Positions 3,216 through 45,921 are shown, numbered from the stretch's first letter. The stretch is 64,000 nucleotides of DNA from a candidate division TA06 bacterium SM23_40 (GCA_001303705.1 LJUI01000002.1:47-64046); one strand, 5' to 3'. Program-made: numbers and translations. Notes: generated by a model not told the origin, from the letters alone.

Positions 3216-3301
<86 letters not shown>

Positions 3302-16530: not shown

Positions 16531-16610
16531 CGCACTGGGGCCGATGCTGGACTCTGCGGGCCCATTCGAGCGATATAGTAGTGTCTATCGACAGGTCAAT
16601 GAGCAGACGA

Positions 16611-16637
16611 GAGAGTCCGAAAGGGCTCTCTTTTTCT
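16611..16637 (+). terminator. rho-independent terminator
   Basis: GAGAGTCC-GAAA-GGGCTCTC (8-bp stem including one G-U pair, GAAA tetraloop) followed by TTTTTCT. Confidence 0.7.
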
Positions 16638-16656
16638 CATGTGGGGAAGGGTAGCT

Positions 16657-18012: not shown

Positions 18013-18067
18013 GCCGCCGTGCGGGTTGCAGTGAGAACGGCAGTCGAGACGACGAGGAGGATGGGGA

Positions 18068-19426: not shown

Positions 19427-19597
19427 CCCCCGATCGACTCCGCTAAGGCTCTGTTGACGCCCGTACCCGATGTGTCGGTCTGTGCGGCCGTGCCCGCCCT
19501 GCTCTCACACGGCATGGAGCGGCATTCGGTGGCTCTGTGCGGGCTCCGCCGCCGGTGGGAGGAACGGCGGCCTGTGCGAGGGTCCTCTAAAAACTGG

Positions 19598-19626
19598 TTG
19601 ACATCGCATGAGGCCTGATGTAGGTT
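19598..19626 (+). promoter_or_regulatory. sigma-70-type promoter candidate
   Basis: TTGACA, 17 nt, TAGGTT. Lies 64 nt upstream of the TPR lipoprotein ATG. Confidence 0.45.
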
Positions 19627-19689
19627 GGTGCGGAGCGGCTACTGCTTCCTTCAGTCTCGTATAATCCGCCTTCAACAGGGGGGCGTGCA

Positions 19690-20619: not shown

Positions 20620-20756
20620 GGACCTGCCGGTACTGGTGAGTATCCCGGCTGGAGTTTCGGTGCCCACTCAGCGCGGGAAGAGAGTGGGGAGAGTGTGTGA
20701 TCGACCGGAGAGGATAACGCAGGCGAGCGCGATAGGACCTAGGGGAGACGCCTCTG

Positions 20757-29409: not shown

Positions 29410-29438
29410 TTGACAGCAGCGGTGCGGTGTTCTATGCT
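29410..29438 (+). promoter_or_regulatory. sigma-70-type promoter candidate for the ABC transporter operon
   Basis: TTGACA (29410-29415), 17 nt, TATGCT (29433-29438). About 165 nt upstream of the permease ATG. Confidence 0.55.
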
Positions 29439-29608: not shown

Positions 29609-30604
29609 ATGGAGATCGCGATGGCGGCGACCTCTACTCAGGCGGCAGGGCTCGGGTGGTGGCGATCAGGTCTGGGCAAGTTCGGTCCGTACCTCTACCT
29701 CCTGCCCGCTGCGCTCATCATCATCGTCTTCCGGTTCGTACCGATTCTCTACTCGGTGAGGATCAGTCTATACCGATGGGGGATCGCGGGCGCCGGTGCG
29801 TTCCTGGGCATCGGCAACTATGCCGAGATGATCCGGGATGGCATCTTCTGGCGGTCGATGCTCAACGCCTCCTACTACGTCATCGGGGTCGTCCCGCTCG
29901 GAATCGTCGTCTCGCTGTTGGCCTCTCTCCTCCTCAACACGAAAATCCGTGCCCTCGGCTTATACCGGACGGTCTACTTCCTCCCTGTGGTGACCTCGAT
30001 CATCGCCATCTCGATGGTCTGGAAGTGGATCTACAATCCGCAGCGGGGCCTGGCCAATTACCTGCTAATGAGATTCCGCTTGCCGACACTCGCCTGGCTC
30101 GAGGAGCCGAGAGGCGTCGTCGAACTCGCGTTCTCCCCGTTGGGCATCGAGGTTCCCGGGTGGTGTGCCGGGCCCAGTCTCGCCCTCGTCGCGCTCGTCA
30201 TCCTCAGCATCTGGAAGGGGCTCGGGTACAATATCGTCATCTTCCTCGCCGGGCTCCAGAACATCCCTCAGCAGTACTATGAGGCCGGGCGGATCGACGG
30301 CGCAGGGCGGCTGGGACTATTCCGCCACGTAACCTGGCCGCTCCTCTCCCCGACGACGTTCTATGTGCTCGTCATGACCACGATAGTCTCGTTCCAGGTC
30401 TTCGCTCCCGTCTGGCTCATAACGGGGCCGCCTGCCGGCGGTCCGCTCGGGACGACGAAGGTCATCGTCTACTACTTATATCAGAGGGCGTTCAACGAGG
30501 GGCGGTATGGGTACGGGAGTGCGATCGCATTCGCGCTCTTCCTGGTCATTCTCTGTCTCACGCTCGCGCAGCGGCTCGTGCTGGAGCGGAGGGTGCACTA
30601 CTGA
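29609..30604 (+). CDS. carbohydrate-type ABC transporter permease (MalF/UgpA-like)
   Basis: Six-TM profile. EAA loop YEAGRIDGAGRLGLFRHVTWPLLSP. The ATG at 29609 is preferred over the track start. Confidence 0.88.
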   Translation: MEIAMAATSTQAAGLGWWRSGLGKFGPYLYLLPAALIIIVFRFVPILYSVRISLYRWGIAGAGAFLGIGNYAEMIRDGIFWRSMLNASYYVIGVVPLGIVVSLLASLLLNTKIRALGLYRTVYFLPVVTSIIAISMVWKWIYNPQRGLANYLLMRFRLPTLAWLEEPRGVVELAFSPLGIEVPGWCAGPSLALVALVILSIWKGLGYNIVIFLAGLQNIPQQYYEAGRIDGAGRLGLFRHVTWPLLSPTTFYVLVMTTIVSFQVFAPVWLITGPPAGGPLGTTKVIVYYLYQRAFNEGRYGYGSAIAFALFLVILCLTLAQRLVLERRVHY

Positions 30605-31461
30605 TGCGGACTGACCACGCGGTGCCGTTCGTCGGGATCATGAGCAGGACGGGACGAAGGGGAATAGTGCATCTATTTCTCCTTGCCGGCGCCGTGCTCA
30701 TGCTCCTGCCCTTCATCTGGATGCTCTCGACTTCGCTCAAGAATCCTGTCGAGGCACTCCAGTTCCCGCCTACGTGGCTGCCACAGGCCCCGCGGTTTGC
30801 CAACTATGTCGAGGCGTGGCGGGCGGTTCCGTTTCCGCGTTACTTTTTCAATACTGTCCTTGTGACAGTCGCTGTTCTCACGGGCACACTCATCAGCTCG
30901 TGCTTGGCCGCGTACGCCTTCGCGCGGATGGAGTTCCGCGGACGCGAGGTACTCTTCTTCGGATTTCTCGCGGTGATGATGGTTCCCATGCCGGTGTACC
31001 TCGTGCCGAGCTATCTCATCATGTCGAAGCTCGGGTGGATCGACACATATCTCGCCCTCATCGTTCCCTGGACCGCGAGCGTCTTCACGATCTTTCTTCT
31101 GCGGCAGCACTTCCGGGCTATCCCCCGTGAACTATACGAGGCGGCCGTTATCGACGGCTGCTCGCGGCTTGGATTCCTCTGGCGGGTGGTTCTTCCTCTT
31201 TCCCGGGCGGTGCTGGTGACCGTGGCACTGTTCAGCATCATCGGCTCGTGGAACAGCTTCATGTGGCCCCTCGTCATGGTCAATTCCAAGTTGCTCCGGC
31301 CGATCCAGGTGGGGCTGGCCTATTTTGCCCAGGGAGAGGCAACAGAGTACACGCTGCTCATGGCAGCGTCCACCTTCTGCATTGCTCCTCTGGTCCTTCT
31401 CTTTTTCGTGGCGCAGCGTCAGATCATCGAGAGCTATGCGAAGACCGGGCTGAAGGAGTAG
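30604..31461 (+). CDS. carbohydrate-type ABC transporter permease (MalG/UgpE-like)
   Basis: EAA loop YEAAVIDGCSRLGFLWRVVLPLSRA. 1-nt overlap with the upstream permease gene. Confidence 0.88.
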   Translation: MRTDHAVPFVGIMSRTGRRGIVHLFLLAGAVLMLLPFIWMLSTSLKNPVEALQFPPTWLPQAPRFANYVEAWRAVPFPRYFFNTVLVTVAVLTGTLISSCLAAYAFARMEFRGREVLFFGFLAVMMVPMPVYLVPSYLIMSKLGWIDTYLALIVPWTASVFTIFLLRQHFRAIPRELYEAAVIDGCSRLGFLWRVVLPLSRAVLVTVALFSIIGSWNSFMWPLVMVNSKLLRPIQVGLAYFAQGEATEYTLLMAASTFCIAPLVLLFFVAQRQIIESYAKTGLKE

Positions 31462-31478
31462 TTCGGAGGGACCTCACA

Positions 31479-32789
31479 GTGTACACAGCTCTGCCTCAGG
31501 TGACGCGCTGGATACGGATCATCGTCTGTTCGGTTCTGCTCTGCGCCCTTTTTGCCGCTTCAGGGTGCAGGAAGAAGGGTGCCGGGATAGAGGTACCATT
31601 CTGGCATGCCATGGGAGGGGAGGTCGGCTCCGCCCTTGAAGAGATGGTCGCTGACTTCAATGCGTCGCACCCGGGGCCGCCGGTCATGCCGGTGAGCATG
31701 GGCAGCTATGAGTCGCTCTCCCAGAAGCTGATGGCCTCGGTTGCGGCAGGGGAGCCTCCTGTGCTGGCCCAGGTATACGAGTCGTGGAGTGCACAGTTCA
31801 TGGCCTCCGGTGCGGTCATGCCCATGGGTCCGTACGTCCGCGGATCGGAGGGTCTCGACCCGCAGGAGCTCGACGACATCTTCCCCGTGCTCATCGAAGG
31901 TAACACCTGGCAGGAAGAGCTATGGACCTTCCCGTTCAACAAGAGCGTTCCGGCCTTCTTCTACAACCGGGACATGTTCCGCGAGATCGGGCTCGATCCC
32001 GACCGGTTCCCCGAGACGTGGGATGAGTTCGTCCATACCGCGAGGCGTCTGACACGAGACCTCGACGGAGACGGCCGTACGGACCGGTGGGGATTTGCCA
32101 TGCCCGTCAACGTCTGGATATTCGGGTGTCTTCTGCTCGGCAACGGGGGAGCGCTCCTCAGCCCTGACGGCACCGAGGCAGCATTCGATGGGCCGGCCGG
32201 CGTGGACGCACTGGAGAAGATCGCGAAGCTGCTTAAGGAGGATCGGGTCGCCTACCTGACAACAGGGTATCAGCATCAGGACGACTTCCTTGCCGGCAAG
32301 GTCGGCATGATCCAGAGCTCGATCGCCTCGTATGCATTCATGAAATCGAAGATAACGTTCGATATCGGTATCGCCCCCTTCCCGGCTACTGAGGAGCGGG
32401 CGGTCCTCGTATACGGCACGAATGTGGCGCTGTTCGCGCGGAGCACGCCGGAACAGCGGGATCGGGCCTGGGAGTTCGTCCGCTGGTTCACCTCACCCGA
32501 GGCGCAGGCCCGGTGGTCACTGGCCACGGCCTACGTCCCCGTGAGGAGGAGCGCGCTCGAACTGCCTGCGATGAGCGGCTGGTTTGAGGAGCTTCCCGGC
32601 CTGAGGGAGACGATGCTCCAGATGGAGCACGGAAGGCTTGAGCCGAGAATTCAGGAGTGGTTTGCTGGCCGCCGCCTCCTTGGCGAGCTGGCGTTGGAAC
32701 CTGTCTTGCGCGGCCATGAAACACCTGAGCTTGGATTGAAGAAGGCGGCACGCCATTTCGATGCCGAGCTCGAGGCGGCGCGCAGATGA
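31479..32789 (+). CDS. ABC transporter extracellular solute-binding lipoprotein (family 1)
   Basis: GTG start after GGAGGG. Lipobox AASGC. The profile is typical of sugar-binding SBPs (FWHAMGG..., PFNKSVPAFFYNRDMF). The track start at 31248 lies inside the permease gene. Confidence 0.85.
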   Translation: MYTALPQVTRWIRIIVCSVLLCALFAASGCRKKGAGIEVPFWHAMGGEVGSALEEMVADFNASHPGPPVMPVSMGSYESLSQKLMASVAAGEPPVLAQVYESWSAQFMASGAVMPMGPYVRGSEGLDPQELDDIFPVLIEGNTWQEELWTFPFNKSVPAFFYNRDMFREIGLDPDRFPETWDEFVHTARRLTRDLDGDGRTDRWGFAMPVNVWIFGCLLLGNGGALLSPDGTEAAFDGPAGVDALEKIAKLLKEDRVAYLTTGYQHQDDFLAGKVGMIQSSIASYAFMKSKITFDIGIAPFPATEERAVLVYGTNVALFARSTPEQRDRAWEFVRWFTSPEAQARWSLATAYVPVRRSALELPAMSGWFEELPGLRETMLQMEHGRLEPRIQEWFAGRRLLGELALEPVLRGHETPELGLKKAARHFDAELEAARR

Positions 32790-32903: not shown

Positions 32904-35900
32904 ATGAGAGAGAGGGTCCACGCAGTCATACTGTCTGTGGCGGCACTGCTCCTGGTAGCATTGCCGGCCGGTTCTTTGACGATCTACGACATCCAGTACA
33001 CCGAGGATCCGGGCGGGGATTCGCCGTACGCGGGACAGGTCGTCACGGTCTCCGGGATCGTGACCGCAGGAACGGGCATCTTTCCCAGCGGATACTTCAT
33101 TCAGGATGGTGAGGGCCCGTGGCGCGGCGTCTATATCTATGACTATACGACGTCCGTCTCACAAGGGGACAGCGTCACGGTTACGGGAGAGGTGAGTGAG
33201 TACTACGGGAAGACCGAGATCGGCTTCATCTCGAGTGTCACTATCCACAGCTCGGACAATCAGCTCCCGGGGATGGCCGCCGTGCTCACTGCCGATCTCG
33301 CGACTGGGTCCGATGAAGCCGAATCGTACGAGGGTGTGCTCATCGCCGTTTCGAATGTCGTCGTAACCGACGACGATCTCGGGTACGGCGAATGGGAGAT
33401 CGACGATGGCTCAGGTCCGTGCCGGGTCGATGATGAGGCATACGCCTACAGCCCCTCGCTCGGAGATACGTTCCTCGTCGTTGCTGGAATCCTCGACTAC
33501 GCGTTCGATGACTTCAAGATCGAGCCGCGGTACGCTGCCGACATCATGACGAGCCTCGACGGTTCAGGCTCCGCCTCGATAGACATCGGGATGGTTCCTC
33601 CTTCCTCGACATACAACCTCAGGGTGCGGATCACGCCGGCGGCAGGGCAGCTCGTTGCCGCGAGCGTCGAACTCCCGTCGGCATGGGGGTGGAGCGGATC
33701 CGGTTCGGATGTGCTCCTCTCCGGGGCAGGGTTCGCGTCGGCGACGAGCGAGGTGATCGGGAGCGGGACGAGCGCAGACCCGTACCTGATCCTCGTACAG
33801 GACGCGGCCCTTACCGTCGCCGACTATGGGATCGTCGAGATCCGCCACACGACTTCTCCGGACAGCTCGGCATCATATCCGTTCATCATCAGTACCGCGG
33901 GGCAGGGCGGGGTGCTCACTGAGATCGCAGCTGCACCGCGGATCATTGTGACACGCGCTGACGGAACAGTCCCCATCAGCTTGGTGCGCAAGAATGACGA
34001 AGATGGACGGCCACTCCTATTGGGCGAGGCAGTGGCGGTGCGCGGCATCGTCACCGCCGGAGACGAGTTCGGTCCCCAGAGTTTCATGCAGGACGAGACA
34101 GCCGGGGTCGTCGTCTACGGGATCGAGGATGCCCTCACGCGAGGAGACGATGTCACAGTGATGGGGACTGTCGATCAGTATAGCGGGCTGACAGAGCTTG
34201 TGAGTCCCAGCCTCCTCACGCTCCACAGCACGGGCAACGCGGTCGAGCCGCTCACGCTCCATGCGATCGATATTGCCACGGAAGGAGCGGGAGGAGTAGA
34301 GCAGTACGAGGGGTTGCTGGTGCAACTCCAGGGCGTAACGATGGAAGAACCGTTCTTTCCTGTCGACGACAATGTGATGATACAGGACTCCACGGGATCC
34401 TGCCAGATGCGGATTGACGGGGATACCGAGCTTGCCGGAACTCCTGCGCCGAGAGGTGCATTTAATGTCATCGGAGTCGTCTCCCAGTATGCCCCCGACT
34501 CCCCCCACACAACTGACTATCAGGTGATGCCACGTGGACTCTCGGATATCGTTAAAGGGGGAGACGGATCGGGCACTGTCGCGCCACAGCCCAGCGGTGT
34601 GTTCCGCGGCGCCGATGTGACACTGACACTGACGGTCGCCGCAGAGCTGGGCGAACTTGTCGGCGCGAGCATCGAGGTGCCGGTCGATTGGGAATGGACC
34701 GGCGATGTGAGCGACGTGTCGCTCAGCGGCGATGGTGCGTCAGGCGCAGTCGTCGATTCTATCGTGGGGGATGGCGTCGCCGAGGCGTACGCGATCTATA
34801 TCTCTGGTGCGTTGATAACAGCGAGCGAGACGATGAGCGTAACGATCGGCCGTCTTGTTGCGCCCAGTACTCTGCTCGGCTATTCCTTCGTCACGATGAC
34901 CGCGACGGCCGGCGGCACGTTGCTGGAGGTCTCATCTTCGCCCGAAGTGTGGGTCGTGGAGCGTATCGCCGACATCCAGGCGCCGGGAGACGACGGATAT
35001 AGCTCGGCGATGGTCGGGCAGGGGGTGGTCGTCCAGGGGGTCGTCACCGGGCCCTCTCCTGTCTTCAACCCCAGCGAGGAGGCGACGAGTTTCTGGATTC
35101 AGGATGCGACAGGCGGCGTGAACGTATACAGCGGCCAGGACGACGGTAACCTGGGCCTGACGCTCGGCACGGAAGTCCGGGTGTTGGGTGAGGTTGTGGA
35201 ATATGCAGGGGTGACAGAAGTGAGTTATGATGACCCCGAAGACCTGACGATCATCGGAACGACAGCAGTGCCGGCTCCGTTCGATCTGCCGCCATCGCGG
35301 GGTATCAACGAGACAGTAGAGGGATTGCTGGTACGTATCGTGGGCGCTCAGGTTGCGACTGCGCCTCAGGCCGCTGGCGCGGGCAAGAACTTTCAGATAT
35401 GGCACGATATGGCCCTGGTCGATGTGAGGGTCGTGGACGCGGCCCAGATCGATCTCTCTCAGGTCTTCCCCGGTGCATACTTCGACCTTGTCGGGGTGGC
35501 CGGCCAGTATGATACCGATCCGCCCTATAATGCCGGATACCAGCTCCAGCTCAGAATGGCGAGCGATCTCCTGTTGCTCGATCTCGGTCAAGCATCCTCC
35601 GGCCCGGTGCTCGAGATCACGCCGAATCCGTTTTCGCCCGATCTGGGAGAAGTGGCCTCAATCAGCGTGAACGGCCCGGCATCTTCACGGCTTACTCTTC
35701 GCATCTACGACCTCGAGGGTCGGCTCGTGCTCGAGCCGCTGGACGGCAGGCCGGGAGGGCCGACGCTCTTCGAGTGGAAGGGGACGGACCAGGCGGGCGA
35801 GCGGGTAACGATAGGTATCTACCTCTGCCATTTGACGGTGGTGCGTACCGATGGGACGAGCGACACGGTGCTCAAGCCCGTGGTAGTAGGGACACCGCTC

Positions 35901-35906
35901 GATTGA
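32904..35906 (+). CDS. 1000-aa secreted modular protein, (A-B)x2-A plus T9SS/FlgD-Ig-like C-terminal domain
   Basis: Signal peptide. Three ~195-aa A modules: aa 25-215, 355-549 and 686-889. Each has G.V.V.G.VTA...F.QD...VY...GD.V.V.G.V.EY.G.TE. Two ~130-aa B modules: ELPSAWGWSGSGSDVLLSGAG and EVPVDWEWTGDVSDVSLSGDG. C-terminal ITPNPFSP...LRIYDLEGRLV...WKGTDQAGERVTIGIYL. Confidence 0.85.
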   Translation: MRERVHAVILSVAALLLVALPAGSLTIYDIQYTEDPGGDSPYAGQVVTVSGIVTAGTGIFPSGYFIQDGEGPWRGVYIYDYTTSVSQGDSVTVTGEVSEYYGKTEIGFISSVTIHSSDNQLPGMAAVLTADLATGSDEAESYEGVLIAVSNVVVTDDDLGYGEWEIDDGSGPCRVDDEAYAYSPSLGDTFLVVAGILDYAFDDFKIEPRYAADIMTSLDGSGSASIDIGMVPPSSTYNLRVRITPAAGQLVAASVELPSAWGWSGSGSDVLLSGAGFASATSEVIGSGTSADPYLILVQDAALTVADYGIVEIRHTTSPDSSASYPFIISTAGQGGVLTEIAAAPRIIVTRADGTVPISLVRKNDEDGRPLLLGEAVAVRGIVTAGDEFGPQSFMQDETAGVVVYGIEDALTRGDDVTVMGTVDQYSGLTELVSPSLLTLHSTGNAVEPLTLHAIDIATEGAGGVEQYEGLLVQLQGVTMEEPFFPVDDNVMIQDSTGSCQMRIDGDTELAGTPAPRGAFNVIGVVSQYAPDSPHTTDYQVMPRGLSDIVKGGDGSGTVAPQPSGVFRGADVTLTLTVAAELGELVGASIEVPVDWEWTGDVSDVSLSGDGASGAVVDSIVGDGVAEAYAIYISGALITASETMSVTIGRLVAPSTLLGYSFVTMTATAGGTLLEVSSSPEVWVVERIADIQAPGDDGYSSAMVGQGVVVQGVVTGPSPVFNPSEEATSFWIQDATGGVNVYSGQDDGNLGLTLGTEVRVLGEVVEYAGVTEVSYDDPEDLTIIGTTAVPAPFDLPPSRGINETVEGLLVRIVGAQVATAPQAAGAGKNFQIWHDMALVDVRVVDAAQIDLSQVFPGAYFDLVGVAGQYDTDPPYNAGYQLQLRMASDLLLLDLGQASSGPVLEITPNPFSPDLGEVASISVNGPASSRLTLRIYDLEGRLVLEPLDGRPGGPTLFEWKGTDQAGERVTIGIYLCHLTVVRTDGTSDTVLKPVVVGTPLD

Positions 35907-36006
35907 TGTAGGGACTGCTCTGTTGTGGCGAGGAGTGTGAACGGAACATGAGCCCTCGACCGAGGGGAGATCAGCGATCGATGGGAAGGAACAGCGGGAG
36001 GCAGAC

Positions 36007-36849
36007 GTGGTAAGACAACCAGGTAGGGCCGGGCGGGGCATCGTCATCGGCCTCACGGCGCTTGCGGCTGCGCTGCCCGCGTGGGCGGCCTTCGAGGATC
36101 TGGAGTCAGGGGTGAGGCCTCAGGGGATGGGGGGAGCGTTTACCGCTGTCGCCGATGATCCGAGCGCGATCCACTGGAATCCTGCAGGGCTGGCGGCCCT
36201 GGAGGAGATCGAGTTGATTGCTCTGTACAAGCATCTGTTCGGCGGCCCCGAAGGGCTTCACAACGCCACGCTCGATGTCGCCCTGCCCACGCGATGGGGC
36301 CATTTCGGGGCCTCGCTTCAGGAGGTCGGTTTCGAGCTGGAGAGCGAGCGCGTGCTCACGCTATCGGGCGGGTTGCAGCTGACCGAGGATCTTGCGGTCG
36401 GGCTCAACGTCGTGGGGTACCAGCTGTACCAGAAGAGGTTCGGCACCGGCCTGGCTGTGGGGTTCGACGTCGGCCTATTGGCAACGGTGTACCGCCGATG
36501 GCGGCTCGGCTTCTTTGCACACAACCTCAATAATCCCACGATGGGCACGGACTACCGGTACGATCTGCCGCGCCTCGTCAACGTCGGTCTGGCGTACATA
36601 CCGTTCGAGGGGGTGATCTCGAGCCTCGATCTCTCCAAAGAGGTGGGCAAGGGGACGCGCCTCCAGGCGGGACAGGAGTTCGCCATCTTCGATGATCTGC
36701 TGGTACTGCGTGCAGGCATTCAGACCGAACCTGCACGCTATTCGGCCGGCGTCGGCACGAGAATAGAGCGGCTCCGGTTGGACTACGCGGTCCAGAACCA
36801 CGAAGTCCTTCCCCTCACCCATCAGATATCGTTCGGGTATCGGTTCTGA
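36007..36849 (+). CDS. outer-membrane beta-barrel protein, PorV/PorQ-like (family call tentative)
   Basis: GGGAG RBS then GTG. Signal peptide ending AWA. N-terminal GMGGAFTAVADDPSAIHWNPAGLA motif. Alternating beta-strand pattern. C-terminal FGYRF. Confidence 0.7.
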   Translation: MVRQPGRAGRGIVIGLTALAAALPAWAAFEDLESGVRPQGMGGAFTAVADDPSAIHWNPAGLAALEEIELIALYKHLFGGPEGLHNATLDVALPTRWGHFGASLQEVGFELESERVLTLSGGLQLTEDLAVGLNVVGYQLYQKRFGTGLAVGFDVGLLATVYRRWRLGFFAHNLNNPTMGTDYRYDLPRLVNVGLAYIPFEGVISSLDLSKEVGKGTRLQAGQEFAIFDDLLVLRAGIQTEPARYSAGVGTRIERLRLDYAVQNHEVLPLTHQISFGYRF

Positions 36850-36891
36850 GTACGCCCAGAAACTTTTCATCGGGGTTGAAAGGAACAGGAG

Positions 36892-39426
36892 ATGCGCAGC
36901 CCGTTCATTCTCTTGATTGCACTCGCTTCCCTCGTCGGCTCCCTCCCGGCGCCGGGGACGGTGGATGCACAGGTGGCAGGAGCGGCAGGAGAGGCGCCGG
37001 CCGAGAGGACGACGCCGTACACGCCGGACGATCAGCTCGACCTCAATAAGGCGTCGCTCGAGCAGCTCCTCTCGCTCCCCCTCGAGGCCGAGGATGCGCG
37101 TGCCATCTATGAGTGGCGTCGACGGCATGGCCCGTTTCAGAGCGTGTACGGGCTGCGAAGGATCGAGCAGATCGACGGCGCCGAGTTCGAGCGGATCAAA
37201 CCCCTTCTCTTCGTCGCTCCACCCGAGCTGGCGCAGGAGGTTACACAGCGGATCGAAGAGATACAGAGACGGCTTGCCCGCGAGGAGACGCCTGCCGCGG
37301 CTGCCATCGATGAGTGGGAAGATCTGGTTGTCGATCCCCTTGATATCAACCGCGCGACGGTCGACGATCTGGTTATGCTCGATGACGTGTCGCTCGTCGA
37401 TGCGGTGGCCGTCGTCAAGCATCGGATGACCCGCGGCCGGATCGATGACCTTCGCGCCCTGCGGCGCAACGTACGCGGCCTCACCTACTACGGATATACC
37501 AGGATGCGGGATTTCGTCCGGTTCGATCCCCGTCCCGAGGGACTCGATTTCCATGGCCTCTATCGGGTGATCATCGATCACCGCTCCGAGGTCGACGTCG
37601 GCGAGGACGATGAAAACCTCGATCTTCTGACGAGCCGGCTTGAGGCTTCAGTGGCCGGGCTCGCGCCGGGATCGGGAGAGGAGGAGCCGGGAGCAAATCT
37701 CGAGGGATTGCAGCAGGCAGGTTGGACTGATCAGGAGATCGACCGGCTCAGGGGTGAGCTCGAGCAGGATCTTGTATCGATCAGGGGGATTCCTGCTGAA
37801 CCGCGGATCCTCCAGAAGGTACGGGCGCGCTGGGGACGCCGCATCAAGCTCGGGTTCGTCGCAGAACGGGATCCGGGGGAGAGGACGGATGATCTGGTCA
37901 AGGGGTACCTGGGCCTGTACGACATGGGGCCGATCGATCGTCTCATCCTCGGCACATACCGGCTCACGCTCGGGCAGTCACTCGTCATCGATAATGACGA
38001 GCCGGGAGGATATGAGTCCCCGTTCCGGCGGACTGACCGGATCGCGGGCCTGTTCGGCGATGCCACCGCATCCGAAGAGTTCATCTTCCGCGGCGCTGCC
38101 ATGCAGGCGAGCCTGGGCAGGATCCGCCCCCTGGTCTTCTATTCGCGCGACCGCAAGGACGCCATCCTCAACCGGGACGGGACTGCGAACAGCCTCATTA
38201 CGAGCTGGCCCCGGCCCGAGAGCACCAGGGATCGGCTGCTCGAGAGGACGTTCGGGGGGAGTCTGCGGTTTGATCTGGGAGGCCTGGGGCCCCTCCCGAT
38301 CGGCACGTATGTCGCCGCCAATGGATACGAGGCGGACTACGACCCCGGGGTCCGCATCGATCCGACCACGCTCGACATCCCCGGGGATGGAGACACTCTG
38401 AGGGACCCGAACTACCTTCAGGCGTTCAGCGGTGATCGGCGCCGCGTGTACGGAACAGACTTCCGCACGCTCCTCGGCAATGTCTCCGTCGAGGGCGAGT
38501 ACGGGAGGCTCGATGGCGGGGGCGATGCGTTGGTTCTGAAGGCCCGGGCGCAGTACGAATACCTCTACCTGCTCGGGCTGTACCGCCGGTACGACGCCGA
38601 TTTCGATAATCCGTACGCCCGCCCGTTTATGGAGCAGCGGAAGTACGACGATACGCTCTTCGAGAGAGAGTACCGCCTGCTCAATCCCCTTCATTCATAT
38701 CTTCAAGACTACCCCGCCCCGAAAGCCGAAGAGGGGCTCTATTTCGAGACCCGCTATCAGATCACCCGAAAGATCATCATCACCAGAGCATATCTCGACA
38801 CGTGGCGCAACGTGGCCTGGGGGTTGCCCAACCTCCGGATCCAGGGAGAGATCGAGTACCGACCCGTCTTTCCTCTCCGCTTCCGGCTGAAGCAGAAGTG
38901 GCAGCGTAAGTCGAATCCCGGCGATGTGGTGGCGACGACCTCGCGCACCAGCGAGACGACACTGCGGGCATTCGCACTCCTCAGCCAGCGTGACTTCTTC
39001 GGACTGGAGCTCCGGTACGGGCGGGTGCGGCTCACTCCCACGCTCCGATGGGGAGGCGACATGATGATGGACGGGGGGTTCCTATCCGGGAACTGGGAGC
39101 ATCATTTCTCTCCCGCGCTGTCAGTGCAGTCGGGCATCGTCATCTGGGAGACGAACGGCATGTCCCAGTGGACATTCGAAGACAGAGGAATCGATTTCCT
39201 CAATGGACGGGGGATGAGGTATTACATCACGGTACTCGATCAGCTCTCGCCCGGCCTGAGCCTCCGTTTCAAATTCAGAAAGAAGAACACCGAATTGCCC
39301 CATTCGGGCATCTATGGACCGGAGAGTGAGTACAGGTACGGAGGCGGATCGGCCGTTCCGGTGAAGGATTTCGTCGATTATCAGGATGAGTATTCGGCGA
39401 GCATTCAGCTCGACTTCCGCTGGTAA
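36892..39426 (+). CDS. outer-membrane beta-barrel protein with two N-terminal ComEA-like helix-hairpin-helix domains
   Basis: Signal peptide (VDA/Q). HhH 1 (aa 48-108): LDLNKASLEQLLSLPLEAEDARAIYEWRRRHGPFQSVYGLRRIEQIDGAEFERIKPLLFV. HhH 2 (aa 148-211): LDINRATVDDLVMLDDVSLVDAVAVVKHRMTRGRIDDLRAL. The C-terminal ~500 aa are Y/R/G-rich alternating strands ending IQLDFRW. Confidence 0.8.
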   Translation: MRSPFILLIALASLVGSLPAPGTVDAQVAGAAGEAPAERTTPYTPDDQLDLNKASLEQLLSLPLEAEDARAIYEWRRRHGPFQSVYGLRRIEQIDGAEFERIKPLLFVAPPELAQEVTQRIEEIQRRLAREETPAAAAIDEWEDLVVDPLDINRATVDDLVMLDDVSLVDAVAVVKHRMTRGRIDDLRALRRNVRGLTYYGYTRMRDFVRFDPRPEGLDFHGLYRVIIDHRSEVDVGEDDENLDLLTSRLEASVAGLAPGSGEEEPGANLEGLQQAGWTDQEIDRLRGELEQDLVSIRGIPAEPRILQKVRARWGRRIKLGFVAERDPGERTDDLVKGYLGLYDMGPIDRLILGTYRLTLGQSLVIDNDEPGGYESPFRRTDRIAGLFGDATASEEFIFRGAAMQASLGRIRPLVFYSRDRKDAILNRDGTANSLITSWPRPESTRDRLLERTFGGSLRFDLGGLGPLPIGTYVAANGYEADYDPGVRIDPTTLDIPGDGDTLRDPNYLQAFSGDRRRVYGTDFRTLLGNVSVEGEYGRLDGGGDALVLKARAQYEYLYLLGLYRRYDADFDNPYARPFMEQRKYDDTLFEREYRLLNPLHSYLQDYPAPKAEEGLYFETRYQITRKIIITRAYLDTWRNVAWGLPNLRIQGEIEYRPVFPLRFRLKQKWQRKSNPGDVVATTSRTSETTLRAFALLSQRDFFGLELRYGRVRLTPTLRWGGDMMMDGGFLSGNWEHHFSPALSVQSGIVIWETNGMSQWTFEDRGIDFLNGRGMRYYITVLDQLSPGLSLRFKFRKKNTELPHSGIYGPESEYRYGGGSAVPVKDFVDYQDEYSASIQLDFRW

Positions 39427-39530
39427 CACAAAGGTCGCCGCCGGTGAGGATCCCCGCGCGACTTCCGTGCTCCGGTGAATGTCGCAGCTGCATCTGGTGC
39501 CAGCAGGGAGGAACTGTGAGGGAGAAGAAC

Positions 39531-40742
39531 ATGTTCATCAACAGGGGGCTTCGCGCGCCCGCAGCGGCTCTTGTCGTGCTGGTGGCCGCGCTGAGTGCGG
39601 CGGGCGCGTCCGGGTATACGTTGCCGGGCGTGAGGTCGTTCGGGGACCCGGTGAGCGGGCAGGGGGCGCGATCGATGGCGATGGGGGGAACAGGTATCGC
39701 TGCTGACCCGGGCCTGGGACGCCTCTTCGTCAATCCTGCACTCCTCGGGTTCGCCCGGCGCGGCAGAATAGAGGCCTCGCTGGGCGTGGCGCGGCCCGGT
39801 GAGGTACGCACGCAGGAGGTGTTCGACAGCTTCGACAATACGGTGGGGGAAGCCACGCTCGCGGCGAACACAAGCTACTACATCCGCCCTGCCCTCTGGG
39901 GAGTCATGCAGCCGTTGGGGAGGTTTGTGGTGGCGGCCGGCGGGAGAGAACGGTACGACTTCGACTACGATTTCCATCAGGAGATCCGCGACAACTTCTA
40001 CTACCGGCTGGGGAGCCGCGACCTCGTGGTACGGGGAGGGCTGTACGAGTGGAGCCTCGGCGTGGGCATGTGCCCGAGTGCGTCGGTCGGCCTGGGTGCG
40101 GCCGTCAACCTGCTCCGCGGAGACGCGGAGTGGAGGTGGGAGGTGGAGGATTCATCGGTCGATACGACCGAGACATCGAGCGCGAATCTCGATGGGTGGG
40201 ACGTTACGGTGGGCGCTGCGGCGAGGATCGGGGAGCGCGTCGTGCTCGGGTTGATGGCGCGCAGGGGAGCTGAGGTGGGATGGGAGGCGGAGTCGGGTTC
40301 TATTGATGACGCGACTGTCGACTATCCGCCGTTGCTCGGGGCGGGGCTCGAGGTCACGCCGGCAAACCAGTTTCCGGCGATCCTGAGCTGGGATGTGCTG
40401 TACATCCCCTGGTCCGACCTGACGGTCGATGGTGAGGAGGCCGACCTCGACGATGTGTGGGAGGTGAGGTTCGGCGTCGAGCACGAGATGACCGATGGGC
40501 TCCTCGTCAGGATCGGCTTCCGATGGGAGCCGTCGTACGTCAACGAGGAGATCGCGCAGGCGGTGGTGGCGACCGGGCTCGGGTGGGAGGTCAAGGGATT
40601 CGGCATCGATCTGGCCACCGAGCTCGGAAGACGAGGATACCGGAGCTCGGAGGTGACCGCATCTGACGTCGACTTCCCGGAGCCGGTCGAGGTGGAGGAG
40701 ACTCTCGTGCGTCTGGCAGCGACGGTGTGGAGAGAGTTCTAG
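39531..40742 (+). CDS. outer-membrane beta-barrel protein (FadL/PorV-like, tentative)
   Basis: GAGGGAG RBS then the ATG at 39531. Signal peptide. GARSMAMGGTGIAADPGLGRLFVNPALLG motif. Ends ATVWREF. Confidence 0.7.
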   Translation: MFINRGLRAPAAALVVLVAALSAAGASGYTLPGVRSFGDPVSGQGARSMAMGGTGIAADPGLGRLFVNPALLGFARRGRIEASLGVARPGEVRTQEVFDSFDNTVGEATLAANTSYYIRPALWGVMQPLGRFVVAAGGRERYDFDYDFHQEIRDNFYYRLGSRDLVVRGGLYEWSLGVGMCPSASVGLGAAVNLLRGDAEWRWEVEDSSVDTTETSSANLDGWDVTVGAAARIGERVVLGLMARRGAEVGWEAESGSIDDATVDYPPLLGAGLEVTPANQFPAILSWDVLYIPWSDLTVDGEEADLDDVWEVRFGVEHEMTDGLLVRIGFRWEPSYVNEEIAQAVVATGLGWEVKGFGIDLATELGRRGYRSSEVTASDVDFPEPVEVEETLVRLAATVWREF

Positions 40743-40875
40743 GGGGCCGCCTCTGGTGGGCCTCGGCAGCGGCGGACCGTACGGGATGCTCGAGTCGCGA
40801 GGAGAGTAGACGAAGGATGGGTTGCGTGCGATCTGCGGCCGCCGTTCGATGTCGGCGGCCTGAGAGGGATGTGAG

Positions 40876-42426
40876 ATGATGAGGTATACGCGCATGAGGA
40901 GCGCGCTCCTTGCGCTGGTGCTCGCTCTGATCGTTCTGGGGAGCGCCCCGGCGGATGAGTACCAGCACCTGATCATTCTCCACACCAATGACATACATGG
41001 AAGTCTGGCGCCGGTGGATGCGTGGTGGCTGAATCCGGATTTCCCGCCGCCCGTCGGCAATGGCGCTGCCGCAATGACGATCATCGATCGGGAACGGGCG
41101 AATGCGGAGAAGCACGGATACGGATTTCTGCTCCTCGATGCGGGAGATTTCTACCAGGGGACGCCGCTCGGGGATTTTTCCAGGGGCGAGGCGGTAATCG
41201 AGTTCCTGAACCACGCTGGCTATGATGTGATGAGCCTGGGCAATCACGACTATGCAGATGGACAGGAGAACCTGTACGAGCGCGCTGCGCAGGCCGACTT
41301 CCCCTTCCTCGGCGCCAACATTCTGATAGAACAGACAGGTGAACTGCCTCCCTATGCGAGGCGGCATATCAAACTGGAACGGGGTGGTGTGAAGATCGGG
41401 ATATTCGGTCTCATCACCCAGTACATGAAGGGGATGGCGAGGCCGGAAGACATCGAGGGGCTGGAGTTCCTCGAGGAAGCTCCGGTAGCGGCGGAGTGTG
41501 TGGAGGAGCTGAGGGCCGAAGGTGTCGACATCATCATCGGCCTCACACACATCGGGTATCGCCACGATAGGCGCCTCGTCCAGCAAGTCCGGGGAATCGA
41601 CGTCATCATCGGGGGGCACAGTCATACCGGATTGCGAGACCCGTACGAGTCGTTCTCCAATCATACTGTCGTCTGCCAGACATTTGGCCACCTGACGACA
41701 GTGGGCAGGCTCGAGCTGTTGATCGATCGTGAGACGAACCGTATCGCCGGGTATGAGGGGAAGCTGTTTGAACTGTACGCCGAGGAGGTACCGCTCGATC
41801 AAGAGGCGCTCGCACTGGTCGGGAAGTGGGTCGAGAAGGCGGAGCAGGGGCTGGACGAGGTGATCGGCTCATCAGCTGCCGAGCTTACCCGGGCGGGCAT
41901 GGAGGAATCCCCTATGGGGAACCTCATTACGGATGCGATGCGCCTGCGATTCGGGGTCGACGTGGTGATGCACAACAGTGGTGGGATCACGGGCACGCTG
42001 CCAAAGGGAGTCCTCACCTATCGGAATGCGTATGAAGCAGATGCCTATGCCAATACCGTTGTCACCATGGTGTTGAGTGGGCGTCAAGTGTGGGACCTGC
42101 TCGAAGTGAGCGTGAACCGCCACCACGCAATCTTCCAGGTCTCGGGTGTGAGGATGGTCTATGATGTGACTCGCCCGATCGGCGAGCGCGTGCTCGAGGT
42201 GGAGGTTGGTGGGGAACCCCTCGATTTCGATCGCGATTATACGGTGGCAACAAACAGCTTCCTTGCCGCCGGAGGCGGCGAATATGAGATATTCGGCCAG
42301 GGCCGGGACTGGACCGACACCGGCGTCTATATCCGGGATGTCATCGCGAGCTATGTGCGCGCCCACTCCCCTATCGACGCGAAGGTGGAGGGACGGATCA
42401 TCGACCTGTCGGTTTCACTCCGTTAG
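40876..42426 (+). CDS. bifunctional metallophosphatase/5'-nucleotidase (UshA family), secreted
   Basis: Signal peptide. Calcineurin-like motifs HTNDIHG, DAGDFYQGT, GNHDY and GGHSH. C-terminal 5'-nucleotidase substrate-binding region (NSGGITGTL, NSFLAAGGGEY). Confidence 0.9.
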   Translation: MMRYTRMRSALLALVLALIVLGSAPADEYQHLIILHTNDIHGSLAPVDAWWLNPDFPPPVGNGAAAMTIIDRERANAEKHGYGFLLLDAGDFYQGTPLGDFSRGEAVIEFLNHAGYDVMSLGNHDYADGQENLYERAAQADFPFLGANILIEQTGELPPYARRHIKLERGGVKIGIFGLITQYMKGMARPEDIEGLEFLEEAPVAAECVEELRAEGVDIIIGLTHIGYRHDRRLVQQVRGIDVIIGGHSHTGLRDPYESFSNHTVVCQTFGHLTTVGRLELLIDRETNRIAGYEGKLFELYAEEVPLDQEALALVGKWVEKAEQGLDEVIGSSAAELTRAGMEESPMGNLITDAMRLRFGVDVVMHNSGGITGTLPKGVLTYRNAYEADAYANTVVTMVLSGRQVWDLLEVSVNRHHAIFQVSGVRMVYDVTRPIGERVLEVEVGGEPLDFDRDYTVATNSFLAAGGGEYEIFGQGRDWTDTGVYIRDVIASYVRAHSPIDAKVEGRIIDLSVSLR

Positions 42427-42744
42427 ATGCGAGAGATCCCGGGCGGACCGACAGAAGCGATCTGTCCGGGATAGCGCCTGCCGATTCGTGTCTCTTCTCT
42501 ACGTACCCTGCTCGACCCTCGAGATCAATAATAACACGGAACCACGAGTAGGCGGGATCTCCCGTCCGCCTCAATCGGATCGCCCGCGCTCGGCGACGCA
42601 TATGCGAGTCCGTTCGCCCCGGGCGATTTGTCGTATCGTTGCGGGTTCGGTTCCGAGGCTGGACAAGGTGCACTGCCGCATCCGAGTCCCCCCGCGTGAC
42701 CGATACCGTCGGTCTGTTCGGCATATCATACAAGGAGGAGGGCC

Positions 42745-44121
42745 ATGAGGATCAACATCGCTCCTGTGACGGCCGTCCTGCTCTCCCTTGCGATGGCGGC
42801 AGGCACGGGGCGGACGCAGGAGATCCAGGTGTCGCTCGATGAGGCCGGCACGCTCTCACGCATCGATGCCGAACTCGAGCGGGATCTCGGGCTGTTCCCC
42901 GAGTATGAGAATTTCAGAGAGGCGTGGCTGTTTCGGGTCGCAGAGGGAGAATTCGTGCTCGAGATCCTGCACGGGCATGAAGGCGCACTGAGGAAAGTCC
43001 GACTGCCTCTGTCTGCGGAGGAGGTACGCGAGTTACGGCGTGAGGTGACCGCACGTATCGAAGAGCGCGCCCCTGGGGTCCTGTTCGACCGGACCGGGCG
43101 GACGAAGCTCCTCATCACCACAACGCTCCTCTCCCTCGGATACTACGGCTGGGCGCTCCCGGTGGTCTTTGATGTCGGGGGGAAGGGGGGGGCGGCGCTC
43201 TACTTCATGACGAGCGGCGCCGGGTTCTTTGTCCCGCGTGCCGCGACCGAGCGGATACCCGTCACGGATGCGGCAGCCACTCTTGCTCTGTACGGTGCAA
43301 CCCGGGGCATCGCGCACGGCATCTGTCTTGATTACGTCTTCCGCGGAGAGGATGTGGGGGGCCGCGATGCAATAGCCTTCGGTATGGTCGCCAGCGTGGT
43401 GGAGGGAGTGGCCGGGTTCTCCGTTGCCAACCAGCTGGATATGACTCCGGGCACTGCTGAAGTGATCAGCGTCATGGGCGATGCAGGCCTTGGATTCGGG
43501 CTTCTGACCGCTGATGTAGCAGGTTTCTTCGACGATGGCGAGGAGAAATCGCGTCAGGCAGCGGCGTCAGCGCTGTTCGGTTCAGGCGTAGGAGTCGCTG
43601 CGGGGGGCATGCTGTCGAGGATGGAACCATATACGCGTGACGACGCCTATGTTCTGAGGGCAGCGGGGCTGCTCGGCGCATACCTCCCTCTCGCGCTCGT
43701 CGACATCGCCGACCCCGAAAATGACAAAGCCTACACCGCGGCCTCCATGGCGGGATTGGCGATAGGGCACGGTATCGGCCATTACCTTGTCCGCGATAAG
43801 GACTTCGGAAGCGGCCAGGGCATGATGGTAACCCTCGGTGAGGTTGCGGGGGGATTGTTCGGGCTGGGGCTCGCCCACCTCGCAGCTACCGAGGGGCGCG
43901 ACCACAGCACGCTCTATCTCACCGCAAGCTCTATAGGCGCCACGATCGGATTCTGGTCGATGTACCGTTCGGTTGCCCCGGCCGCGCACGCGCGGGAGGG
44001 GAGCGTCGTCTGGGAAATTGATCTTGCGCCACAGGGTGTGATCGCCCTTGCCCGCGGCGGCGCAGTCGGCGCGGATCGCCGCTCGCCGGTACCGCTGCTC
44101 GGGTGGACCATCAGGTTCTGA
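42745..44121 (+). CDS. hypothetical polytopic Gly/Ala-rich membrane protein
   Basis: AGGAGGAGGG RBS. Signal peptide, then a ~110-aa soluble charged region, then about 9-10 hydrophobic Gly-zipper-like segments. No family recognised. Confidence 0.65.
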   Translation: MRINIAPVTAVLLSLAMAAGTGRTQEIQVSLDEAGTLSRIDAELERDLGLFPEYENFREAWLFRVAEGEFVLEILHGHEGALRKVRLPLSAEEVRELRREVTARIEERAPGVLFDRTGRTKLLITTTLLSLGYYGWALPVVFDVGGKGGAALYFMTSGAGFFVPRAATERIPVTDAAATLALYGATRGIAHGICLDYVFRGEDVGGRDAIAFGMVASVVEGVAGFSVANQLDMTPGTAEVISVMGDAGLGFGLLTADVAGFFDDGEEKSRQAAASALFGSGVGVAAGGMLSRMEPYTRDDAYVLRAAGLLGAYLPLALVDIADPENDKAYTAASMAGLAIGHGIGHYLVRDKDFGSGQGMMVTLGEVAGGLFGLGLAHLAATEGRDHSTLYLTASSIGATIGFWSMYRSVAPAAHAREGSVVWEIDLAPQGVIALARGGAVGADRRSPVPLLGWTIRF

Positions 44122-44460: not shown

Positions 44461-45921
44461 ATGAGGAGATCATCTCTAGCGCTCTGTCTTAGTGGAATTC
44501 TGACGCTATGCGTCCTCGGGCTCTCGAGTGCCCAGGTACGGAGCCCGGCAGCGCTTGACGCCGCCGATTGTGCCCTGCCGGCCGGACTGGCAGAGGCCAT
44601 TGGTGATCCCGCCCGCGTGCGGGATGCGCGACACCTTTTTTCCCGGGATGGAGAAGAGTGGACACCGGAAGACACCGCGTTCGAACGCCATTTCATGCTC
44701 GCCCGGCTCCGTCTCGCCCGCGAACAGGGAATGTTGGAGAGCATCGACCAGGAGCGCCTGGCGGACATGATCAGAAGAGCCGGCCTGGAAGGGATCTCTG
44801 TACAGGCGCTTCGCCAACTTCTCGACGGAGGGCCTGGGACGCGCGGCATGGTCGGGTATGGGTTCTTCTTCAACGAATACTCGTTCTACTGGATGGACAT
44901 TACTGCCATCGTCCAGAACATGATCATTCCCCGCACCCCGGGCGGAGATGTGTACACCTGGCTGTACAACACGACGACGAACCGTTCGAATCTCGGCGTC
45001 GAGGCGTTCATCTCCTACCACTCCCAGTCCGATTTTCACTTCAAGGTCTATGACTGGGCCCATCCTTCTCCCTGGCAGATCGACATGCCCTATGACGACC
45101 TCGATGAGTATATCTACGACGTGCCCAACCCGGACGGGGTGTGGCGCCAGCTGCTCCGCGTCGTCAACATCACCCGGCAGCACGAGCCGAACGAGTGGAC
45201 GAACGAGGTCTACTTGTACAACCGCTTCCGCGACGTCTGGGATCTTGTCTACCTCTACTCCTATACGACTAATCATCCTACAGAGAACACCTATGAGCCG
45301 GGCGATTTCTACGGGAGCTGGGGGCCGATCTTCGAGACATTTCAGGATCATGACGGAAGCAATAAGCCGATCGGCTTCGACAACAGCTGGATGTATCAGG
45401 ATGGCGTTGTGTCGAAGCTGACTCCGACGAATTCGTATCTCAGAGTGGACGACCCGGACCTGTACCCGCCGATATTCGTTGTACCGAACGCTGCCTGGGC
45501 TGTTGGGAGCACTGAGGGTGAGCCGGCCAACCAGGTCTTCGAGGCCGAGGATGGCACCCACGAGATAGGCCATGCCTTCGGCCAGGGCTGGGTCGCAACG
45601 CCCGGTGAGGGGGAGGGGTGGATGCTGCGGGGGCCGTTATGGACCCTGCCGGAGGGACGGATGAACGCGGAGTTCCTCCTGGGTATCGCTCAAGTGACCG
45701 GCCCCGATGATGCCGTCTGCCTCGTCGGCGTATGGGACGCGACGATCAGCGACTATGCCGCATCAGATATCCTGTACCGGCACGATTTCGTCCATCGGTT
45801 CTATCCGCACCAGTTCCGGTACGACTTCGAGGCGATCTCCGGCCACCAGTACGAGTTTGTGGTGTACAGCTATGCTCACCTGGCGTTCGGAGTCGACAGG
45901 GTGGTGATTGTCAAGAACTAG
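44461..45921 (+). CDS. hypothetical secreted protein (orphan, aromatic/Asn-rich)
   Basis: GGAGGA RBS. Signal peptide MRRSSLALCLSGILTLCVLGLSSAQ. W/Y/F/N-rich mature part. C-terminal ~130 aa begin FEAEDGTHEIGHAFGQGW. No family recognised. Confidence 0.7.
   Translation: MRRSSLALCLSGILTLCVLGLSSAQVRSPAALDAADCALPAGLAEAIGDPARVRDARHLFSRDGEEWTPEDTAFERHFMLARLRLAREQGMLESIDQERLADMIRRAGLEGISVQALRQLLDGGPGTRGMVGYGFFFNEYSFYWMDITAIVQNMIIPRTPGGDVYTWLYNTTTNRSNLGVEAFISYHSQSDFHFKVYDWAHPSPWQIDMPYDDLDEYIYDVPNPDGVWRQLLRVVNITRQHEPNEWTNEVYLYNRFRDVWDLVYLYSYTTNHPTENTYEPGDFYGSWGPIFETFQDHDGSNKPIGFDNSWMYQDGVVSKLTPTNSYLRVDDPDLYPPIFVVPNAAWAVGSTEGEPANQVFEAEDGTHEIGHAFGQGWVATPGEGEGWMLRGPLWTLPEGRMNAEFLLGIAQVTGPDDAVCLVGVWDATISDYAASDILYRHDFVHRFYPHQFRYDFEAISGHQYEFVVYSYAHLAFGVDRVVIVKN

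Follow-up and report, generated by a model that had tools for sequence, protein, structure and literature searches.

Five consecutive open reading frames on the plus strand of a 64-kb stretch of DNA from candidate division TA06 bacterium SM23_40 (positions 1-64000, referred to here as the window) make up a unit at 32904-42426 and are designated g1 to g5. We propose, with moderate confidence, that this cassette is a nucleic-acid utilisation locus of candidate phyla of the FCB (Fibrobacterota-Chlorobiota-Bacteroidota) group, built on a new outer-membrane pore. The evidence consists of the domain identities of the products, the gene order, the conservation of that order and the predicted folds. 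Four independent gene families with ties to nucleic acids or nucleotides have stayed together in several phyla, these being the OB (oligonucleotide/oligosaccharide-binding)/DUF5689 modules of g1, the HHH_3 domains of g3, the 5'-nucleotidase or NucT-like enzyme at the end of the cassette, and a substrate-binding protein of the UgpB branch upstream; they are accompanied by three outer-membrane barrels. An original prediction, made from the sequence alone, had suggested an apparatus for capturing and scavenging extracellular DNA. That reading is partly supported by the domain families, their co-conservation and the NucT-like variant tail, with degenerate hairpins and the lack of a nuclease on the other side. 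Its helix-hairpin-helix (HhH), OB/DUF5689, PorV-like and 5'-nucleotidase assignments were all supported by profile searches.

A word-based search returned 18 relatives of g3, and an exhaustive profile search returned 161 clusters at E<=1e-30, roughly 100 of them full-length. Scanning species-representative genomes placed relatives in at least 158 species genomes. Lineages, identities and gene-order counts were taken from the best 80 of the 158 genomes with relatives, and all 80 records are metagenome-assembled or uncultured-isolate genomes. In these 80 the g3 relatives are 37-46% identical, and the lineages represented are WOR-3, Fermentibacteria (including Aegiribacteria and Sabulitectum), Edwardsbacteria, TA06, Cloacimonadota, Latescibacterota and Hydrothermota. 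Open reading frames were called at each locus and searched with profiles built from the window genes; the denominators given here are the loci with enough flanking sequence. The small barrel g2 stands directly before g3 at 64 of 66 testable loci, and g4 directly after it at 58 of 70. A full-length 5'-nucleotidase follows g4 at 42 of 63 loci and a phospholipase D (PLD)-type protein takes its place at 7, ie one tail or the other is present at 49 of the 63. Further upstream, g1 precedes g2 at 32 of 48 loci and the binding protein is found directly before g1 at 20 of 31. The commonest architectures are binding protein-g1-g2-g3-g4-5'-nucleotidase (20 loci), g2-g3-g4-5'-nucleotidase (18) and g1-g2-g3 (7), and overlapping or abutting genes are frequent in the cassettes of relatives. 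Because the gene order is conserved across phyla, the cassette is more than a chance neighbourhood. Co-conservation had been set beforehand as a test of the prediction, and the genes were found to be kept together in dozens of species from several candidate phyla. An intermediate view based on three loci, that the 5'-nucleotidase was not a conserved member, was overturned by the 80-species scan. No account of an HhH-fused barrel or of the cassette came up in full-text searches of the literature.

The central product, g3, consists of a signal peptide, a disordered linker, two HHH_3 domains, an acidic helical insert and a large beta-barrel. Pfam HHH_3 was matched with 59.6 bits (threshold 27) in two separate stretches, so that the two ComEA-like HhH domains predicted in the 844-residue barrel are real; HHH_3 is linked to DNA in experimental systems (ComEA). 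No other family was found in g3 in Pfam or NCBIfam, and no model in either collection covers the barrel. The full-length ComEA model TIGR01259 gave 37.3 bits and its cut-off of 152.35 was not reached. When a profile of 17 g3 relatives was searched against the Protein Data Bank (PDB), the sole matches were the HhH parts of EEPD1 and ComEA (8dfk, 8dss). A plain ComEA-like description requires correction, as by sequence the hairpins of g3 are degenerate; the family consensus retains just VPG(I/M)(T/D) and VxGLS. The second HhH domain is basic in 16 of the 17 family members.

The AlphaFold2 (AF2) model of g3 has a predicted local distance difference test score (pLDDT) of 72.9 and a predicted template-modelling score (pTM) of 0.70. 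It contains two helical HhH units, a strand at 220-231, the acidic insert, and then strands to the C-terminus. The number of strands (24) and the topology were read from the predicted secondary-structure string. Short turns alternate with long loops, which puts the C-terminus, and hence the N-terminal HhH region, on the periplasmic side, and from this predicted secondary structure the HhH region would face the periplasm. Foldseek returned generic large barrels only (MtrB, FimD ushers, TonB-dependent transporters and SlpA, with template-modelling (TM) scores of 0.2-0.4), the likeness to TonB-dependent transporters being that of a generic barrel (TM about 0.25-0.37). Profile searches with TonB_dep_Rec, Plug and CarboxypepD_reg gave no match in g2, g3 or g4. 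The most conserved stretch of the g3 barrel is the longest predicted extracellular loop (DNPYxRGFxEQxRFDDT...PxPKAE). Aromatic and charged residues abound in it, and it might form a constriction or a gate, or bind a partner.

The surface protein g1 is built from three tandem-OB modules of the DUF5689/ExeM YhcR-like type, separated by immunoglobulin (Ig)-like domains and followed by a putative C-terminal sorting domain of the FlgD_ig/type IX secretion system (T9SS) type. DUF5689 (PF18942) was matched with 48.4 bits against a gathering threshold of 28.6, covering profile positions 19-217 of 217. The ExeM/NucH model NF033681 gave 94.8 bits, below its cut-off of 300, with N-terminal positions 1-116 matched three times, and OB-fold matches were also obtained. 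At the C-terminus FlgD_ig scored 36.5 bits, above the cut-off of 27; the T9SS type A sorting model TIGR04183 gave 13.1 bits (cut-off 23), and the matches to the Por_Secre_tail and PorZ tail were weak. Homologues sharing this tail bear the name T9SS type A sorting proteins. The DUF5689, N-terminal ExeM/NucH and FlgD_ig matches bear out the nuclease-accessory modules and FlgD-Ig-like C-terminal domain originally proposed for the 1000-residue protein. No Exo_endo_phos, EEP, SNase or other catalytic domain was found in g1 by Pfam and NCBIfam profile searches. The modules match, with E values of 1e-43 to 1e-60, tandem modules of proteins bearing EEP nuclease and lamin-tail (LTD) domains. The AF2 model (pLDDT 87.6) is all-beta with a three-fold repeated pattern. 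Foldseek with the full-length model gave mostly generic multi-Ig proteins, the only informative matches being p204 HIN-dsDNA complexes, and sequence searches with g1 and g2 against PDB chains gave no match. The g1 protein is 100% identical to AMJ71_05115 of candidate division TA06 bacterium SM1_40. A secreted S8 subtilase encoded upstream in the window bears the same FlgD_ig-type C-terminal domain, and the tail therefore looks like a general sorting signal here and not one specific to the locus.

Proteins related to these modules have been studied elsewhere. One protein annotated as DUF5689 is DdbD of the ddbABCDEF locus of B. thetaiotaomicron, proposed to bind DNA as partner of the outer-membrane transporter encoded there; the locus is needed for depletion of exogenous DNA, and HIN-like structural similarity was reported for DdbD by its authors. 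RA0C_RS04920 of Riemerella, also annotated DUF5689, is required for natural transformation. Deletion of the YhcR-like tandem-OB region abolishes the nuclease activity of ExeM.

The two smaller barrels belong together. PorV_fam (NF033709) was matched over the full length of g2 (E 3e-15, 56.5 bits) and by g4 (E 2e-8, 34.4 bits), both below the cut-off of 90, and g4 also matched BamG (NF053685; E 4e-10, 39.4 bits, below the cut-off of 250). Among relatives, PorV_fam was matched by 12 of 13 g2 proteins (best 7e-26) and BamG, weakly, by 7 of 12 g4 proteins; no g2 or g4 family member searched reached a curated PorV, PorQ or BamG cut-off. The two families align with an hhalign probability of 98.2% at about 19% identity at profile level, and on these profile matches g4 is a paralogue of g2, both being FadL-superfamily barrels. 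Against PDB chains g4 gave only marginal matches to TodX/TbuX. The PorV-like homology claimed for the two outer-membrane barrels is thus upheld with scores below curated cut-offs, and the protein motifs quoted for the 280- and 403-residue barrels were both found in the translations. The C-terminal residues of g2, g3 and g4 are F, W and F, respectively, a common ending for outer-membrane proteins. There is a solved precedent in BamG, whose FadL-like barrel sits docked on BamA and serves as the anchor of a surface lipoprotein, and by analogy an adaptor or anchor role is proposed for g2.

These homologies are also among the grounds for the likeliest alternative, which we regard as rather improbable. 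Here the locus would display proteins on the surface without transport: g1 would be a T9SS-type cargo or adhesin, g2 and g4 (perhaps g3 also) its PorV/PorQ/PorP-like anchors, and g5 and the importer mere neighbours. The FlgD_ig/T9SS-like tail of g1 and the names of its homologues agree with this, as do the PorV_fam matches across the g2 family and the C25/PorU-like peptidases found near the cassette in about 6 loci; gene pairs of a cargo and a PorP-like barrel are known in Bacteroidota (PMC9143113). However, surface display leaves unexplained why a barrel of about 24 strands should be fused to two HhH domains, and why, in 49 of 63 loci from several phyla, the barrels should be followed by a 5'-nucleotidase or PLD nuclease. 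Moreover, g2-g3-g4-g5 persists where g1 is not adjacent, and every PorV, PorQ and BamG score is under the curated cut-off. No T9SS component was found among the approximately 40 larger open reading frames of the window that were searched. The conservative idea of T9SS-type outer-membrane partners, offered in the original prediction, is a probable account of the way g1 stays attached to the surface, but it accounts neither for the HhH-barrel nor for the phosphoesterase tail.

The enzymes of the tail and the importer upstream bear on the substrate. Metallophos (51.8 bits) and 5_nucleotid_C (128 bits) were both matched by g5 over threshold, the UshA equivalog gave 212.6 bits (cut-off 600 not reached), and the best PDB relatives were 3ivd and 2z1a, followed by UshA and CD73. 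This two-domain architecture and the 5'-nucleotidase relatives agree with the UshA-type enzyme predicted. As g5 is Sec-exported and has no lipobox, it is probably periplasmic. In the variant tail a PLD nuclease with a signal peptide, an HKD motif and NucT matches is followed by a UshA-like metallophosphatase, also with a signal peptide; the NucT-like nuclease is present in loci L005, L009, L016, L032 and others (loci of relatives carry L numbers). Downstream of the PLD-variant cassette in L005 there is a complete pst-type operon (15958-22025, minus strand) comprising PhoU, PstB, two permeases, a PstS-like binding protein and a Metallophos gene, and beyond it a 329-residue gene without family match and then a histidine kinase.

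The presence of an ATP-binding cassette (ABC) importer upstream, with BPD_transp_1 permeases and an SBP_bac_1 binding protein, was as predicted; its description as sugar-type has to be replaced by UgpB/UgpAE-like. The best PDB match of the binding protein was 7c0f (1e-41), with E. coli UgpB (4aq4) next. We take 7c0f to be a Thermus UgpB-like protein that binds the dinucleotide U3G. Such a Thermus UgpB-like dinucleotide-binding protein exists and is placed beside UgpB in CUT1 (PMC12718374). Placed by best match, the importer is UgpB/UgpAE-like, of the organophosphate and dinucleotide branch of CUT1.

An unlikely alternative is that the cassette is a natural-transformation machine, bringing intact DNA to the periplasm for ComEC-dependent import and recombination and not as food. 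The nearest functional analogues of two of its parts, ComEA and the DUF5689 protein RA0C_RS04920, act in transformation, and recJ comes after the 5'-nucleotidase in 11 WOR-3 loci and some kb downstream in Edwardsbacteria and the window. However, RecJ has no signal peptide and may be a mere conserved neighbour, the close genetic linkage of the cassette with degradative phosphoesterases or nucleases, and with an ABC binding protein, fits catabolism, and neither the window nor the clustered loci showed any comEC, dprA or pilus genes. Equally unlikely, in our estimate, is a different phosphorylated or anionic substrate (nucleotide-sugars, glycerophosphodiesters, teichoic-acid or phosphoglycan fragments, or free nucleotides) with the OB and HhH domains as generic polyanion binders. 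The UgpB/UgpAE-like importer would suit this, UshA-type enzymes hydrolyse UDP-sugars too (NCBIfam description), the HhH hairpins are non-canonical and the g1 modules acidic. Set against it, the OB modules of g1 are the same as those on EEP nucleases, the alternative tail enzyme is a NucT-type nuclease, and both HHH_3 and DUF5689 have been connected with DNA by experiment. A role in anchoring or exporting extracellular DNA as biofilm matrix is very improbable. Predicted surface nucleic-acid-binding modules and a large pore would serve it, and ExeM-type extracellular nucleases affect biofilms, but an inward direction is indicated by the conserved 5'-nucleotidase of the periplasm, by the nuclease variant and by a binding protein of the uptake type, and family searches of the window and loci found no linked export ATPase or secretion-system genes.

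Nucleic-acid utilisation remains the reading we prefer, and several observations weigh against it. The canonical G-h-G (GIG) is absent from g3, in which LP-LEA and IEQID replace the LPGIGP and VxGIG of ComEA; the first HhH domain is not consistently basic across the family, and Foldseek gave no specific structural relative of the barrel. The net charge of each g1 module is -22 to -28, an obstacle to binding DNA directly. This acidity is a family trait, common to the g1 modules and the nuclease-linked modules; because the modules are very acidic, any binding of nucleic acid by g1 would probably be cation-bridged. In about a third of testable loci g1 is not adjacent, and a WOR-3 subgroup has g1-g2-g3 alone, without g4 and g5. 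The ligand of the binding protein could also be a sugar or a glycerophosphodiester. Finally, Pfam and NCBIfam searches found no nuclease catalytic domain in the unit of the window, and the caveat to that effect in the original prediction holds.

In the scheme that we infer for the substrate, the topology, the physical association of the parts and the direction of transport, g1 would be exported and displayed. The sorting domain at its C-terminus, the adaptor barrels g2 and g4, or both would hold it at the surface, and the two barrels would flank g3 much as BamG docks on BamA and PorV on SprA. The three tandem-OB modules would then capture extracellular DNA or RNA, with divalent cations probably bridging, and the g3 barrel, with its about 24 strands, would let the polymer or its fragments through the outer membrane. 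The periplasmic HhH domains would bind the incoming strand as ComEA does, biasing its movement inward. Periplasmic enzymes would degrade the strand, in variant loci the NucT-like PLD nuclease; for this genome the nuclease may be encoded outside the unit. The 5'-nucleotidase would free phosphate and nucleosides, and the UgpB-like lipoprotein with the UgpAE-like permeases would import the phosphodiester, (di)nucleotide or nucleoside. More tentatively, g3 might represent a third route for nucleic acids over the Gram-negative outer membrane, beside PilQ/type IV pili and the DdbC-type TonB-dependent transporters. Such a route would be independent of TonB and of pili, with a fused ComEA-like ratchet and FadL/PorV-type barrels holding an OB-fold canopy over the pore.

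The positions of the features are collected in Table 1. The original description of five adjacent plus-strand genes with gaps of 42-133 nucleotides (nt) and a signal peptide on every product was confirmed by the open reading frame coordinates and by inspection. The gaps from g1 to g5 are, in order, 100, 42, 104 and 133 nt, and by eye all five products have Sec-type signal peptides, ie a hydrophobic core followed by small residues. The start used for g4 is that of the public gene calls; the open frame reaches back to a GTG at 39444, which would give 432 residues. Nearly every gene of the window is on the plus strand, so that the co-orientation of the five genes is no evidence of linkage. The window is made up of housekeeping genes, among them those for trigger factor, ClpX, Lon, a sigma-70-type sigma factor, DnaB and RecJ. 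A promoter-like site and a terminator-like hairpin bracket the stretch from the first permease to g5 and are, respectively, a possible start and a possible end of a transcription unit; both come from a consensus scan, a weak kind of evidence. The gap from g5 to the next gene is 318 nt, compared to 42-133 nt inside the unit. An Rfam scan found no riboswitch or other Rfam element upstream of or within the unit.

Table 1. Features of the window. Positions are nucleotides of the 64-kb stretch; residues are amino acids (aa) of the product named. Bits are profile scores.
Feature	Positions	Strand	Size or residues	Description
Promoter-like site TTGACA-17-TATGCT	29410-29438	+		Before first permease; 10/12 consensus matches, best in scanned region
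ABC permease, UgpA-like (CUT1)	29621-30604	+		BPD_transp_1; UgpA 111 bits, cut-off 335; start from public gene calls
ABC permease, UgpE-like	30604-31461	+		BPD_transp_1; UgpE 123.6 bits, cut-off 297
Lipoprotein substrate-binding protein	31479-32789	+		SBP_bac_1; UgpB 144.7 bits, cut-off 411; lipobox FAASGC
g1	32904-35906	+	1000 aa	Secreted non-catalytic surface protein
g2	36007-36849	+	280 aa	Small PorV/PorQ-family (FadL-like) outer-membrane barrel
g3	36892-39426	+	844 aa	HhH-barrel
g3 HHH_3 domain 1	37030-37209	+	aa 47-106	
g3 HHH_3 domain 2	37336-37515	+	aa 149-208	
g3 beta-barrel		+	aa 220-843	About 24 strands; AF2 secondary structure
g3 acidic helical insert		+	aa 243-298	AF2 model
g3 conserved loop	38584-38727		aa 565-612	Longest predicted extracellular loop
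g4	39531-40742	+	403 aa	BamG/PorV-like FadL-superfamily barrel
g5	40876-42426	+	516 aa	Sec-exported UshA-type 5'-nucleotidase
Terminator-like hairpin	42608-42626	+		T-rich tail; 180 nt past g5 stop; consensus scan
tRNA	3216-3298			One tRNA
S8 subtilase	25527-27614			Secreted; FlgD_ig-type C-terminal domain
g6	42745-44121		458 aa	Signal peptide; glycine-rich multi-pass hydrophobic body
g7	44695-45921		408 aa	Trp- and Tyr-rich; no signal peptide
LTD protein	46096-46755			Downstream of g5
recJ	48044-49741			4-9 kb downstream, as in Edwardsbacteria

Downstream of the unit, g6 and g7 have no Pfam or NCBIfam match, and neither is kept beside the cassettes of relatives. The LTD protein reported beyond g5 is present, but it is not conserved alongside the cassette. 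All three were considered as members of the system and rejected, for want of a family match or of synteny in relatives. GC skew is above zero in every 2-kb bin of the window except 30001-32000 (-0.004) and the cumulative skew rises along it, and the window appears to sit in one replichore, on the leading strand.

Further genes were noted beside the cassettes of relatives. A small DUF559 endonuclease-like gene lies between g1 and g2 in two loci of one lineage (L009, 8654-9093; L010, 5330-5769), and looks like a selfish insertion tolerated by the operon. The recJ gene (DHH-DHHA1-RecJ_OB) that comes right after the 5'-nucleotidase in WOR-3 (loci L020-L043 and L086) is about 2.4-2.9 kb past g3. 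This synteny over several candidate phyla could be either an ancestral neighbourhood or a functional link to imported single-stranded DNA or oligonucleotides. Peptidase_C25 genes (gingipain/PorU-like) adjoin g2-g3 in WOR-3 and Hydrothermota (L025, 465-4364; L079, 10768-14673; L076, 8353-10698). Their products are large, with a propeptide and a Por_Secre_tail/FlgD_ig domain or dockerin, which hints at T9SS-like sorting machinery in these two lineages. As they are near the cassette in so few loci, the C25/PorU-like peptidases were not counted as members.

Extracellular DNA in sediments is a major pool of phosphorus, nitrogen and carbon, and TA06, WOR-3, Edwardsbacteria and Fermentibacteria are abundant in sediments and uncultured. 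If nucleic-acid utilisation is the correct reading, the cassette would be a genomic marker of DNA foraging in these phyla, and DNA or oligonucleotides would cross the outer membrane without pili or TonB, through a pore with its own ComEA-like receptor. The adaptor role of FadL/PorV/BamG-type barrels would be widened past T9SS and BAM, and a testable function would be assigned to the HhH-barrel family, for whose barrel Pfam and NCBIfam offer no model. The logic of the cassette would resemble that of polysaccharide-utilisation loci or of the recently described ddb loci, with a different type of transporter.

The closest known systems are ddbABCDEF of B. thetaiotaomicron and RA0C_RS04915/04920 of Riemerella anatipestifer, in which a surface DUF5689 protein (tandem-OB, HIN-like) is likewise encoded beside an outer-membrane transporter. 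Further common points are secreted or periplasmic nucleic-acid hydrolases, an organisation like that of a polysaccharide-utilisation locus and hosts in the FCB superphylum. However, the ddb transporter is a TonB-dependent SusC-like barrel, whereas the proposed pore of the cassette is an HhH-fused barrel between two FadL-like barrels, and no TonB-dependent transporter, Plug or TonB-box family was detected in the cassette barrels. DdbD is a lipoprotein with one DUF5689 unit, compared to the three modules and putative C-terminal sorting domain of g1; further, the unit in the window has no secreted nuclease and includes an ABC binding protein. ExeM, NucH and YhcR resemble g1 in that its modules are homologous to the OB-fold accessory region needed for ExeM activity, and relatives have such modules alongside LTD and EEP nuclease domains; g1 differs in being a pure array of predicted binding modules without EEP, SNase or other catalytic domain.

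ComEA shares with g3 the HHH_3 fold, recognised both by Pfam and by the sequences of ComEA crystal structures, and the HhH region of g3 is predicted to be periplasmic, where DNA would emerge. ComEA itself is small, soluble or membrane-anchored, and has PilQ and type IV pili as partners, whereas g3 has two HHH_3 domains with degenerate GIG hairpins covalently fused to the predicted outer-membrane pore. With PorV/PorQ and BamG, g2 and g4 share the FadL superfamily and the N-terminal motif of the family. Established members attach to a larger barrel and keep surface proteins in place; g2 and g4 differ in flanking a barrel that is neither T9SS nor BAM, and form two new subfamilies. Finally, g5 and the Ugp-like ABC importer fit the downstream steps by which extracellular DNA is scavenged for phosphate, as in Vibrio cholerae, with UshA/CpdB-type phosphatases and a Ugp importer. 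In proteobacteria these genes are scattered in the Pho regulon, whereas the cassette would unite them with a dedicated outer-membrane apparatus in one operon.

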